Counted from the first letter of the stretch, positions 41,158 to 48,531 are shown. The stretch: DNA of 64,000 bases from Giardia intestinalis (GCA_000002435.2 CM018792.1), one strand, 5' to 3'. The notes: generated by a model from the sequence alone, not told the origin. Made by a program: numbers and translations.

Positions 41158-41181
41158 CTTGGGTAGTGAATGCTGTACAGT

Positions 41182-41231
41182 GGGTGATAATGGGTGATAG
41201 AAGGTGATAGAGGGTGATAGTGGAGTGAGAT
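41182..41231 (+). repeat. GGTGATA(R) short tandem repeat block in VSP spacer (copies at 43015..43064 and 46723..46772)
   Basis: gggtgataatgggtgatagaaggtgatagagggtgatagtggagtgagat. The repeat is G-rich and imperfect, with 4-5 units. Confidence 0.75.
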
Positions 41232-41310
41232 ATGCACACAGGCTAGTGATGGACTGTGCACTGCTTGTAAGGCAGCTAACCAGTACATATTCCAGAACAG
41301 GGCAGAGAGG

Positions 41311-44901: not shown

Positions 44902-46698
44902 ATGCTGTACAGTGATAGTGATAGTGATAGTGCTATGTGGTGTGGGGGTGATAGTGGTGGTGTGGGACTTTTCTTCATGGGCGGGTGCTACAAGACAGAG
45001 AGTCAGCCCGGCAGTGACATATGCACAGCAGCCAGTAATGGAGTATGCACTACTTGTAAGGCAGATAACGGCCTGTTCAAGAACCCAGTTACACCTCAGA
45101 AGCCTGGTAGTGAGTGCATCCTGTGCTCTGATACGACAGATAGAAACGGGGTCATGGGAGTCGCTGGATGCTCAGAATGCTCCCACACGGGCACTAGCGG
45201 ACCGGCCACGTGTACAGAGTGTCAAGCAGGGTTCGTTACGAAGGACAGTGCATGTGTGAAGTGCGGAGACGGCTGCTCTGCTTGCTCAGCTGATACTCCG
45301 ACTCAGTGTACCGCCTGCGTTGAGGGGAAGTACTTGAAGGGTGGTAACACTTGTGTAGATGCTGGTGGATGTGACAATGGTAACTATGCGGACAAGAAGA
45401 CCTGGACCTGTAAGGCCTGCAGTGAGATACAAGGATGCACCGCGTGTGCATACGACGACGCCACGGGAAAGCCGAAGTGCACCGACTGCGGTAGTAAGAC
45501 GGTCAGAGACGAGCTGGATGGGACAACGACCTGTGTTGATGAGGCCGAGTGCAAAGTGGGCAAGACGCACTTCTACGACGCCTCGAAGTGCGTGCAGTGC
45601 GGCGACAATGGTAAGGGCGGAGTCCAGAACTGCAAGCTGTGCACCGCAAAAGGCACCTGCGAGGCTTGTGTCGACGGGTATAAAGTCAACGGAAACGCCT
45701 GCGAGGCCTGCACAGGAAACTGCGCAGAGTGCGGAACAGCGGGTCAAATCAACACATGTACAAGATGCATGCCGGGGTACTTCCTTAAGGATGGCCCGCC
45801 TAAGACATGCGTTCTCTGTGATGACGAGACAAGTGGGATTCCAGGCTGTGCCGAGTGCACAGGCGGCGTGGGGTCCCTCAAATGCACTGAATGTAAGCCC
45901 AACTACAGACCCAGCGGAGAACCTAGCGACCTCACATGTACAAAGACCTGCGAGGATGAGACGGCGTGTGGGGGTACCTCTGGCGCTTGTGATGCCACAG
46001 TGATCGATGCTAATGGAAAGGAGCTTCATTACTGTTCATACTGTGGAGAGAGTGGTAAGTATCCTATCGATGGGAAGTGTGTTGATAATGCTCAAAGTAA
46101 TACTTGTAACAACCATGTATGTACATCATGTGCTCAAGGGTACTTCTTGTATATGGGAGGTTGTTACAAGGTTGATACAGTACCTGGCAACTATATGTGC
46201 AAGGCATCAAGTAAGGAGGGGATATGCACAGAGGCAGCCAACAATAGGTACTTCGTAGTCCCTGGGGCACAGACCACTGATCAGTCTGTACTAGCATGTG
46301 GTAACCCATTAGGCACACTAGTAGGCACTCAAGGTACCGCTAAGGCATACGTGGGGGTGGATGGCTGCTCACAGTGCACAGCCCCAGCAGGTCTGTCTGA
46401 GGGTGGCATGACCCCCGCTGTCTGTACCTCCTGTGACAATAGTAAGAAGCCCAACAAGGATGGCAGCGGGTGTGTGCTGTGCTCTGACACCAACTGCAAG
46501 AGCTGTGTGATGGACGGTGTGTGTGGGGAGTGCAACAGTGGCTTCAGTCTAGACAATGGTAAGTGTGTGTCCTCTGGCGCCAACAGGAGCGGGCTCAGCA
46601 CGGGCGCCATCGCGGGCATCTCCGTCGCCGTGGTCGTCGTCGTGGGGGGCCTCGTGGGCTTCCTCTGCTGGTGGTTCGTGTGCAGGGGGAAGGCGTGA
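44902..46698 (+). CDS. vsp: VSP-homologous ORF lacking signal peptide (second copy of the MLYSDSDSDS-type cassette; divergent middle)
   Basis: Its first 78 aa are identical to the 39337 ORF. Its last ~60 aa are near-identical. The central portion differs. ATG sits in the conserved 3'-flank motif of the previous unit. Confidence 0.55.
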   Translation: MLYSDSDSDSAMWCGGDSGGVGLFFMGGCYKTESQPGSDICTAASNGVCTTCKADNGLFKNPVTPQKPGSECILCSDTTDRNGVMGVAGCSECSHTGTSGPATCTECQAGFVTKDSACVKCGDGCSACSADTPTQCTACVEGKYLKGGNTCVDAGGCDNGNYADKKTWTCKACSEIQGCTACAYDDATGKPKCTDCGSKTVRDELDGTTTCVDEAECKVGKTHFYDASKCVQCGDNGKGGVQNCKLCTAKGTCEACVDGYKVNGNACEACTGNCAECGTAGQINTCTRCMPGYFLKDGPPKTCVLCDDETSGIPGCAECTGGVGSLKCTECKPNYRPSGEPSDLTCTKTCEDETACGGTSGACDATVIDANGKELHYCSYCGESGKYPIDGKCVDNAQSNTCNNHVCTSCAQGYFLYMGGCYKVDTVPGNYMCKASSKEGICTEAANNRYFVVPGAQTTDQSVLACGNPLGTLVGTQGTAKAYVGVDGCSQCTAPAGLSEGGMTPAVCTSCDNSKKPNKDGSGCVLCSDTNCKSCVMDGVCGECNSGFSLDNGKCVSSGANRSGLSTGAIAGISVAVVVVVGGLVGFLCWWFVCRGKA

Positions 46699-46851
46699 CT
46701 TGGGTAGTGAATGCTGTACAGTGGGTGATAATGGGTGATAGAAGGTGATAGAGGGTGATAGTGGAGTGAGATATGCACACAGGCTAGTGATGGACTGTGC
46801 ACTGCTTGTAAGGCAGCTAACCAGTACATATTCCAGAACAAGGCTACGACA

Positions 46852-48531
46852 GTGACCCCTGGTGGGGAGTGCATACTGTGCCATGATGCCACGGGAGCGA
46901 ATGAGAACAAGGGAGTGGCTAATTGCCTCAAGTGCACGGCACCAGCTAATAGTCCAGGGGCTGCCACGTGTACTGAGTGCATGTCTGGCTTCTCAGGAGA
47001 CTCGTGTGCTACTCAATGCGGAGGAGACTGTGCCGCCTGTGATAAGAGTAACCAAAATCAGTGCACCTCTTGTAAGACTGGGAAGTACCTGAAAGAGAAT
47101 CAATGTGTGGAAAAAAGTGCATGTAACAACAATCACTACCCCGATGACACTAGCATGACCTGCGTCGCCTGTAGCACCATACAAGATTGCACAGCATGCA
47201 CAATGGACCAGTCCACGGGGAAGCCAAAGTGCACTAACTGCGGTGCCAGTAAGATCCCCAGGACGACTCTCGACGGAACCTCGACCTGCGTGACAAAAGG
47301 GTATGATCAGTGTCAAGGCACAGATAAGGAGCTGTTCATGAAGGAGGACCAATCGGCGTGCTTATTATGCGGAGACAATACTGAGGATACATCTGAGTCC
47401 AATAAAAACCAGGGAACTCCTAATTGCAAGACCTGTACCAAGACAGCATCCACTAAACCGGTCTGTGAGACGTGCAAGGATGGCTTCTTCTTTAATACTG
47501 GTGATAAGACATGTACAAACAAGTGCGATGCCACCTGCAAGACGTGCTCTGCTGCTACAGATGCTAACCGATGCTTAACTTGTATGCCCGGATACTTCCC
47601 CATCGATAGTACAGATCAACAAGGGAAGAAGTGCGTCCCATGCGATAGTGTGGACGACAAGGGTCGCGAAGGGTGCAGTGTCTGCTCTAACAATGGTGGA
47701 TTCAAGTGTACTGAATGTAAGGTGAACTATAAGAAGCAGTCCAATGGAGATGCAGGGGATGACTATACATGTGTGAAGACTTGTGAAGACCCCACGGCTT
47801 GTGGTGGGACCTCTGGCGCCTGCGATGCTATAGTAATCGACAATGATGGAGTAGAGCATCATTACTGTTCTTATTGTGGAAATCAAGGAGATGTACCAAT
47901 CAATGGTATATGCACCAGCTCACTTGCAAGTAATACCTGCGCCGATGGTGTCTGCAAGTCTTGTGCTCAAGGGTACTTTATGTATATGGGAGGGTGCTAT
48001 GATGTGTCGAAGGCTCCTGGTAGTCACATGTGCAAGAAAGCAGATAACAATGGGATATGCACAGAGGCGGCAAGTAATAGGTACTTCGTAGTCCCTGGGG
48101 CACAGACCACTGATCAGTCTGTATTAGCCTGTGGCAACCCCCTAGGCACACTAGTAGGCACTCAAGGTACCGCTAAGGCATACGTGGGGGTGGATGGCTG
48201 CTCACAGTGCACAGCCCCAGCAGGTCTGTCTGAGGGTGGCATGACCCCCGCTGTCTGTACCTCCTGTGACAATAGTAAGAAGCCCAACAAGGATGGCAGC
48301 GGGTGTGTGCTGTGCTCTGACACCAACTGCAAGAGCTGTGTGATGGACGGTGTGTGTGGGGAGTGCAACAGTGGCTTCAGTCTAGACAATGGTAAGTGTG
48401 TGTCCTCTGGCGCCAACAGGAGCGGGCTCAGCACGGGCGCCATCGCGGGGATCTCCGTGGCTGTCATCGCTGTCGTGGGGGGCCTCGTGGGCTTCCTCTG
48501 CTGGTGGTTCGTGTGTAGAGGGAAGGCGTAG
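46852..48531 (+). pseudogene. vsp: VSP cassette without ATG or signal peptide; 559-aa product identical to the 41311..42990 cassette
   Basis: Protein identical to the cassette at 41311. The DNA differs only by synonymous changes in the first ~80 nt and the last ~20 nt, and the stop is TAG rather than TGA. It is the terminal unit of the array. The poly(A) signal ACTTAGGTAGTAAAT is at 48536..48550. Confidence 0.55.

Follow-up and report, generated by a model that had tools for sequence, protein, structure and literature searches.

Variant-specific surface proteins (VSPs) coat the Giardia trophozoite and underlie antigenic variation. The stretch analysed here, 64,000 nucleotides (nt) of chromosome 4 of Giardia intestinalis WB (ATCC 50803; GCA_000002435.2, CM018792.1), is referred to as the window, and its positions 37114-48531 very probably constitute a linear VSP array: a head gene followed by five headless units, together forming a recombination mosaic. 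The analysis shows the protein family of the units, their anatomy, their match to published genes, their mosaic structure and the absence of the array from the assemblies of other assemblages. An earlier note on this DNA had singled out two near-identical 1.83-kb cassettes within the array and read the differences at their edges as the signature of segmental gene conversion. Part of that reading survives, although the frame in which the cassettes were translated, the nature of their 3′ edge and the supposition that every donor is an array member have to be revised. The note identified neither the VSP family nor the cassettes as headless pseudogenes, nor did it place the locus and the phenomenon in the published record.

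The array comprises six consecutive large open reading frames (ORFs) on the + strand, between 36.7 and 48.5 kb, which were named U0 to U5 in order. They end at 39324, 41157, 42990, 44889, 46698 and 48531, with lengths of 1833, 1833, 1899, 1809 and 1833 nt for U1 to U5. The units, with protein lengths in amino acids (aa) and catalogue names where these apply, are:

37114..39324, + strand: U0, complete VSP, 736 aa; exact match to KAE8303950.1 / XP_001706652.2; PF03302 E=1e-140
39325..41157, + strand: U1, pseudo-VSP (vsp93), 1833 nt; 606-aa ORF from 39337; no signal peptide, no initiator (Inr)
41158..42990, + strand: U2, pseudo-VSP (vsp94), first copy of the near-identical pair, 1833 nt; 516 aa from the first ATG at 41440
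42991..44889, + strand: U3, pseudo-VSP (vsp103), 1899 nt; first ATG at 43660, 409 aa
44890..46698, + strand: U4, pseudo-VSP (vsp104), 1809 nt; 598-aa ORF from 44902; mosaic of U1-like, U3-like and U2/U5-like sequence
46699..48531, + strand: U5, last pseudo-VSP (probably vsp105), second copy of the pair, 1833 nt; 516 aa from the ATG at 46981

All six units match PF03302, the Pfam VSP family, with E values from 1e-34 to 1e-140 and above the gathering score of 31.4 bits. Their translations all end in ...GGLVGFLCWWF(I/V)CRGKA*, a hydrophobic anchor with a CRGKA tail. Typical VSPs contain ~12% Cys and many CXXC motifs, and the first-ATG products of the six units contain 49-96 Cys and 16-28 CXXC motifs each. 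A linear array has been defined as at least two adjacent head-to-tail vsp genes with intergenic regions of 60 bp on average and up to 241 bp (Adam et al. 2010, BMC Genomics 11:424); the six + strand units are separated by stop-to-next-ORF gaps of 12-153 nt.

Comparison of the units for exact matches revealed a true recombination mosaic, in which identical tracts give way abruptly to divergent sequence and nearest relatives switch from one segment to the next. The principal tracts, together with one divergent patch in U2 and U5, are:

39206..39545 = 44771..45110, + strand: 340-nt exact tract; spans the U0/U3 ends (119 nt), the spacer and the U1/U4 starts (~220 nt)
41065..41299 = 46606..46840, + strand: 235-nt exact tract across the U1-U2 and U4-U5 junctions (end of the previous unit plus spacer)
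41098..41219 = 42931..43052 = 46639..46760, + strand: 122-nt exact tract
41300..41382 versus 46841..46923, + strand: divergent patch, 11 differences in 83 nt
41311..41398 = 43144..43231, + strand: 88-nt exact tract, U2 = U3
41383..42974 = 46924..48515, + strand: 1592-nt exact tract, zero differences
42602..42908 = 46310..46616 = 48143..48449, + strand: 307-nt exact tract, U2 = U4 = U5
43106..43166 = 46814..46874, + strand: 61-nt exact tract, U3 = U5

U4, for example, is identical to U1 over its first ~220 nt, closest to U3 (80-86%) at alignment columns 1300-1500, identical to U2 and U5 over 307 nt and identical to U1 again through the spacer; its nearest relative switches four times. The earlier note had asked for an alignment of the units and a recombination test. 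In a Sawyer-type permutation of 856 polymorphic ungapped columns (2000 permutations, ten unit pairs), the longest concordant run was reached by 0 of 2000 permutations for any of the ten pairs (p<=5e-4), a run-length statistic that rate heterogeneity and conservation gradients along VSP genes inflate. The note had also observed that the ORFs beginning at 39337 (U1) and 44902 (U4) share their first 78 aa, which is correct. Their middles, described there as unrelated, are divergent homologues, about 40-70% identical in nucleotides per 100 columns and 65% identical in amino acids overall.

The head gene differs from the units behind it. U0 is a complete, expressible VSP, with an upstream non-coding region, an initiator, a signal peptide and a CRGKA tail. 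Judged by inspection, it alone among the six units has a signal peptide: the N-terminus MFGSFVLAGVLVQIAWA resembles a hydrophobic leader, the C-terminus carries the CRGKA tail, and the RefSeq model starts at the leader ATG. The context of this ATG is GCAATGTT, in which a candidate VSP initiator, CAatgTT (37112..37118, + strand), lies at the start codon; the published Inr consensus is PyAatgTT (Adam et al. 2010). The ~2 kb upstream of U0 contain no called protein-coding gene, and the U0 frame is open for 142 codons further 5′ of the accepted ATG (36688-37113). The 2007 model of U0 started at 36766 (852 aa) and the current one starts at 37114 (736 aa), the ATG with the CAATGTT initiator. Proteomics of encysting cells has detected the U0 product (PMC3877021). 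In isolate DH, a partial VSP, ESU37793.1 (375 aa), is 89.6% identical to the C-terminal half of U0. Its contig (140,963 bp) is not that of the syntenic locus, so that DH probably carries another U0-related copy elsewhere.

The ends of the array emerge from a comparison with the syntenic loci of DH (assemblage AII, L010), P15 (assemblage E, L009) and two ENA assemblies (L007, L008). DH, P15 and L007 span the interval and have only one VSP there, full-length at 734-765 aa and flanked by the tubulin chaperone and endonuclease genes. L008 starts inside the VSP, and in all four loci the VSP has a TAG stop followed by the same 187-nt flank. The alignment of orthologous DNA with the window breaks off at 39340 and is taken up again at 48413; thus, U1-U5 (39325-48531, 9207 nt) are absent from those assemblies, the corresponding stretch of L007, L009 and L010 being at about 9813-10000. 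At the downstream end, the following junction was found:

48516..48718, + strand: terminal junction; final 16 nt of U5 (TGTAGAGGGAAGGCG plus TAG), then 187 nt of flank as far as the endonuclease gene

The TAG and flank of U5, with 5 differences from DH in 187 nt, represent the ancestral locus end. U2-identical sequence gives way to it between 48515 and 48516, 16 nt before the U5 stop. The earlier note had treated this 3′ edge as part of an internal conversion tract. It is instead the junction of the last unit with the ancestral end of the locus, since the TAG and flank match the single-VSP loci. The variant TGTAGAGGGAAGGCG at the 3′ edge of U5 does occur, as the note had said, at the ends of the units that finish at 39324 (U0) and 44889 (U3); the TGTAGA that follows the switch point is the U0/U3 variant, and DH has TGCAGG there.

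At the upstream end, U0 itself departs from its orthologue. It differs from DH at 11 positions in the 281 nt before ~39206, and then at 20 positions in the last 119 nt (39206-39324 versus L010 9695-9813). This departure coincides exactly with the start of the 340-nt tract common to the U3-U4 junction, and the last 119 nt of U0 are identical to the 3′ end of U3. The 3′ end of the expressed head gene thus belongs to the homogenised array sequence. Relative to the single-gene loci, the array ends can be placed at ~39206 and at 48515/48516.

Parsimony over assemblages AII and E would favour a gain of the array in WB. We can tentatively conjecture that the lineage of WB, AI, alone acquired the array, downstream of an expressed VSP in syntenic position and after AII had branched off, and that array sequence then overwrote the 3′ end of the head gene. 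If true, the locus would record, as a natural event open to dating, the passage of sequence between an expressed VSP and silent pseudo-VSP cassettes, and it would offer a concrete place to test segmental conversion, of the kind known from variant surface glycoprotein (VSG) genes, besides epigenetic switching. Conversely, the array may be ancestral, with DH, P15 and the ENA isolates having lost it by a single unequal crossover between conserved 3′ ends, a history that we consider unlikely but worth keeping in view. One crossover between the 3′ ends of U0 and U5 deletes exactly 9207 nt and leaves a single VSP with the TAG and flank, as seen, and over its last 119 nt DH has 12 differences from U5/U2 but 20 from U0. 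However, with the single-gene state present in both AII and the outgroup assemblage E, loss needs at least two independent events. The 3′ end is moreover conserved family-wide, and the 12-versus-20 comparison is weak.

Within the array, U2 and U5 are the pair singled out by the earlier note. Compared in register at an offset of 5541, the two units are near-identical with differences clustered at the edges, as the note had reported. They share the 1592-nt and 235-nt exact tracts and are distinguished at 15 positions in total, 11 of these in the 83-nt patch and the others at 42975, 42978, 42989 and 42990 in the last 16 nt, beyond which the sequences diverge. The note had held that a uniform spread of differences would argue against conversion. 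The observed differences are clustered: given the first one, the chance that the ten further differences all fall within its 83 nt of 1910 is ~2e-14. Duplication and point mutation cannot give this patch, because it is an island of 83 nt with 13% differences between 235 and 1592 identical nt. The island is the strongest single evidence for a short-patch event and, as read from the alignment, would be a clean example of exchange between array members.

The likely sources of the patch are only partly represented in the array. In its left half U5 equals U3, and in its right half U2 equals U3; the 5′ variant CAAGGCTACGACAGTGACC does recur at 43128 in U3, as the note had stated. Such exact matches to one patch half per copy (61 nt and 88 nt) make U3 a possible donor, on the one haplotype available. 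The left-patch variant of U2 and the right-patch variant of U5 have no other exact match in the window or in the other loci fetched. Because these two variants occur nowhere else in the window, any donors of them are ectopic or lost. At least two events are required in the patch, since U5 equals U3 on the left, U2 equals U3 on the right, and the other two variants are unique. The proposal of segmental conversion between array members therefore holds as far as the recombination mosaic goes, but array-member donors fit only part of the 5′ patch, and on one haplotype conversion is inseparable from unequal crossover.

The interpretation of the patch also depends on the reading frame. According to the earlier note, the two units encode identical 559-aa products and their edge differences are exclusively synonymous. 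The products are indeed identical when read from the GTG at 41311/46852, but the VSP-homologous frame is open from 41221/46762 (WSEICTQASDGLCTACKAANQYIFQN...), 30 codons upstream of the GTG, and in that frame they differ by three residues, with RAER in U2 against KATT in U5. The six differences at 41300-41310 there give R>K, E>T and R>T plus one silent change, so that the 5′ patch contains three replacements. A bacterial ORF reading (GTG start, 559 aa) was rejected, the organism being eukaryotic and the VSP-homologous frame being open upstream of the GTG. The synonymous-only signature is thus an artefact, because it rests on a GTG start that a eukaryote would not use. Similarly, the four silent changes claimed for ATCCTCTGTCAT -> ATACTGTGCCAT are only three (41334, 41337 and 41340). 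Nonetheless, silent changes are in excess, making up 9 of 13 differences versus 21.5% silent sites (Nei-Gojobori, P=3e-4), and the variants would therefore have been imported from paralogues that had diverged under protein constraint. In this respect the patch variants do not read as new mutations in a decaying pseudogene.

These observations bear directly on whether a plain recent tandem duplication followed by ordinary point mutation, without conversion or further exchange, could account for the pair. A recent duplication did occur, as indicated by the offsets of 5541 and 5565 nt and the long exact tracts. As a full account it is nevertheless highly improbable in view of the confinement of all 11 internal differences to the 83-nt patch, the match of each patch half to U3 in one of the two copies, the silent excess among coding differences, and U1 and U4 middles that are only 40-70% identical within the same 5.5-kb period. 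A single 5.5-kb tandem duplication as the whole explanation was rejected by the divergent U1/U4 middles and the internal patch.

The five downstream units share a common anatomy. Their match to full-length VSPs begins only at about residue 90-106, and a hydrophobic leader is absent. Each is thus a VSP that lacks its 5′ ~300 nt (roughly the first 100 codons), and all five are pseudo-VSPs, not complete VSPs. The PyAatgTT initiator is absent from U1-U5, whose start contexts are TGAATGCT in U1 and U4, TGCATGTC in U2 and U5, and ACTATGTG in U3. No in-frame ATG occurs in U2, U3 and U5 for 73 to 202 codons after the frame opens. The ATG codons of the U1 (39337) and U4 (44902) ORFs fall within the poly(A)-like signal of the preceding unit, AGTGAATg, and the ATG that opens the 606-aa and 598-aa ORFs, which were 'complete' ORFs in the older annotation, is probably accidental. 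Each of the five nonetheless keeps an intact frame of 590-610 codons, a transmembrane (TM)-CRGKA end and its own poly(A) signal, and dN/dS among the downstream units is ~0.3 with all frames intact. U1-U5 are most likely silent.

Signals and repeats in the spacers follow a regular pattern. AGTRAAY is the Giardia poly(A) signal consensus, and AGTGAAT stands ~8 nt after each TGA stop; U5 alone has a TAG stop, followed by AGTAAAT at 48544-48550. The spacers after U1, U2 and U4 contain 4-5 copies of a 10-nt GGGTGATA-type unit, as found by Tandem Repeats Finder (TRF), whose longest period is 500 nt and which reports only these 10-nt spacer microrepeats here. The microrepeats could be slippage-prone or recombination-seeding. 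A homologous stretch in U1 and U4 reads (AGTGAT)x3 at 39349-39370 and 44914-44935, where the ORF encodes SDSDSDS. The spacer features are:

39332..39338, + strand: poly(A)-signal-like AGTGAAT after the U0 stop; repeated at 41165, 42998, 44897 and 46706
41179..41228, + strand: 10-nt GGGTGATA-type microrepeat in the spacer (TRF); also at 43014-43056 and 46720-46769

A functional role for the identical units was considered in light of this anatomy. U2 and U5 could be separately expressed and kept identical by selection, whether because dosage matters or because they form an expressed paralogue pair comparable to the inverted VSP pairs, and the intact frames, the dN/dS of ~0.3 and the individual poly(A) signals would fit, as would the identical VSP pairs known elsewhere in the genome. 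Such a role is highly improbable for units that lack a signal peptide and PyAatgTT, whose frame runs for 73 codons before its first ATG, and whose spacer is only 63-153 nt long and itself VSP-derived. Furthermore, the known identical pairs consist of complete genes in inverted orientation, whereas U2 and U5 are headless and head-to-tail, and the current reference calls no protein for either.

Finally, a false duplication or mis-join of the U4 3′ end and U5 by the long-read assembler would suit the zero differences over 1592 nt and the WB short-read contigs with the endonuclease gene (n=23 read, Logan; L001-L006), all of which break 30-220 nt upstream of that gene, at the conserved VSP 3′ end, but such an artefact is very hard to credit when the Sanger-era 2010 catalogue has two 516-aa members in distinct contexts (vsp93 then vsp94, vsp104 then vsp105), when all four junctions of the pair differ (the 1.2-kb middles of U1 and U4 are divergent; U2 is followed by U3, U5 by the unique flank), and when the copies differ at 15 positions with clustered, partly U3-matching variants that false duplication is not expected to give. 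Public short-read assemblies cannot resolve the array, because every contig stops at its edge.

A recombination mosaic behind a complete head gene thus remains our preferred description, and a sequence of events can be proposed for it. Repeated homologous recombination would have produced both the U2/U5 pair and the surrounding patchwork. It may have been seeded in blocks common to all units: the conserved ICT...TPGGECILC region on the 5′ side, the spacer, and the 3′ end with TM and CRGKA. The 5.5-kb higher-order repeat, in which the series U0 3′ end, U1 and U2 resembles the series U3 3′ end, U4 and U5, would stem from at least one unequal exchange. Short-patch conversions would later have replaced the 83-nt patch at the U2/U5 5′ edge, as well as the middle of either U1 or U4. 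The distal exchange point would lie 16 nt before the U5 stop, where the array meets the ancestral end of the locus. We infer the order and type of these events, as we do the silence of U1-U5 and any reservoir function. Downstream array members have been hypothesised to be either a silent cassette reservoir for new VSP sequences or discarded genes (Adam et al. 2010), and the G. muris genome paper takes a like view of the pseudo-VSP arrays in that species; a reservoir role is neither proved nor refuted by the present analysis.

The units correspond closely to published genes. The length, mass, Cys content and CXXC count of each first-ATG product were compared with Additional file 1 of Adam et al. 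2010, giving the following assignments:

U0 (older model): 852 aa, 89.0 kDa, 96 Cys, 28 CXXC; vsp92, GL50803_137606, 'first in linear array'
U1: 606 aa, 62.2 kDa, 71 Cys, 25 CXXC; vsp93, GL50803_114065
U2: 516 aa, 53.4 kDa, 61 Cys, 20 CXXC; vsp94, GL50803_112009
U3: 409 aa, 41.5 kDa, 49 Cys, 16 CXXC; vsp103
U4: 598 aa, 60.9 kDa, 72 Cys, 26 CXXC; vsp104, GL50803_114653
U5: 516 aa, 53.4 kDa, 61 Cys, 20 CXXC; probably vsp105 (catalogue mass 53.9 kDa)

Five entries (vsp92, 93, 94, 103 and 104) agree on all four descriptors and vsp105 on three, the exception being its mass. All six are flagged in the catalogue as linear-array members on chromosome 4 and were split over two contigs in the older Sanger assembly (Adam et al. 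2010). In the 2020 reference no protein is called for U1-U5, and KAE8303950 and KAE8303951 are consecutive across the array. The best protein match anywhere to the U2/U5 product is only 61% identical, and an exact-sequence look-up of the U2/U5 (516 aa) and U4 (598 aa) products in the protein collection returned no record. Thus, from the consecutive accessions and the 61% best match, U1-U5 went uncalled as proteins, which fits the pseudo-VSP class of Xu et al. 2020 (Sci Data 7:38). A paper comparing Be-2 with WB-C6 makes no mention of arrays or pseudogenes.

Several points weigh against the reading of this locus as an array mosaic, beyond the inflation of run-length tests and the absence from the window of donors for two patch variants. 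(i) The window is one haplotype of one isolate, which does not fix the direction, order or type (crossover or conversion) of events. (ii) The single-VSP state of DH and P15 comes from older assemblies, in which an array may have collapsed, and could also reflect loss by one unequal crossover and not gain in WB. (iii) vsp105 is listed at 53.9 kDa and vsp94 at 53.4 kDa, though both have 516 aa, 61 Cys and 20 CXXC, and a 213-aa vsp106 is listed after vsp105 (Adam et al. 2010), with no counterpart after U5 in the window; the old contig of the catalogue may differ slightly from the present sequence or contain a mis-join. (iv) Intact frames and a dN/dS of ~0.3, as in U1-U5, would also be expected of units that were recently copied from functional genes or are put to some use.

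Exact protein matches to G. intestinalis WB accessions give the gene order NEK kinase (KAE8303948), tubulin chaperone B (KAE8303949), VSP U0 (KAE8303950) and endonuclease/exonuclease/phosphatase (KAE8303951, 48719 onward). Between 36000 and 48000, the G+C content of the array is 0.51-0.57 with positive GC skew, versus 0.43-0.49 in the flanks. Long antisense ORFs run over the array, such as 38068-39744 on the minus strand (558 aa), and are probably a compositional by-product. Just downstream, at 49810-51420 on the minus strand, lies a gene for a cysteine-rich ephrin-receptor-like protein, GL50803_10552, modelled at 536 aa in the old annotation and at 528 aa in the new; a 507-aa variant is found in many Logan assemblies.

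Recombination with silent array members is the leading idea for the diversification of the VSP repertoire, although it is still only a proposal. The locus described here was already in the reference genome and in the 2010 catalogue, and the phenomenon is covered by published recombination and cassette hypotheses; no new principle is involved. Its usefulness lies elsewhere. With an 83-nt patch, array ends that can be placed and a head gene whose 3′ end is common with an internal pseudogene, it offers a convenient test case for long-read population data.

The array is best understood beside other known systems. Linear arrays in head-to-tail order, with tiny intergenic regions, account for more than half of vsp genes; only the first member of an array has PyAatgTT, and related members have 'long regions of 100% identity', with recombination detectable by GENECONV-type tests (Adam et al. 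2010). The present locus is the same as arrays vsp92-94 and vsp103-105 of that study and shares their head-to-tail order, short spacers and restriction of the Inr and a long upstream region to the first member. It differs in that the array was then split over two contigs, the pair was not discussed, and identical genes were said to occur only as inverted pairs, whereas the window has two members in head-to-tail order that share 1592 identical nt and differ by only three residues in the homologous frame. Pseudo-VSP arrays are also known from the 2020 WB reference (Xu et al., Sci Data 7:38) and from G. muris (Xu et al., Microb Genom 2020). Their members, like U1-U5, lack a signal peptide and a proper start codon, and exchange of sequence between pseudo-VSPs and VSPs, by recombination or segmental gene conversion, has been inferred for such arrays. 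Most G. muris arrays lie next to telomeres, and they end in GCRGK, whereas the present array is chromosome-internal, lies between housekeeping genes and ends in CRGKA. In outline, it recalls the silent VSG arrays of Trypanosoma brucei, and also Pneumocystis MSG, where antigen genes likewise lack promoters or are incomplete and have conserved 3′ ends able to seed segmental conversion. Unlike in the VSG system, Giardia VSP switching operates, according to the literature, by epigenetic or post-transcriptional (RNA interference-type) control and not by copying into an expression site. Array-type overwriting is seen here only in the conserved 3′ end of the head gene, and the locus is accordingly likened to the VSG system without being a member of it.

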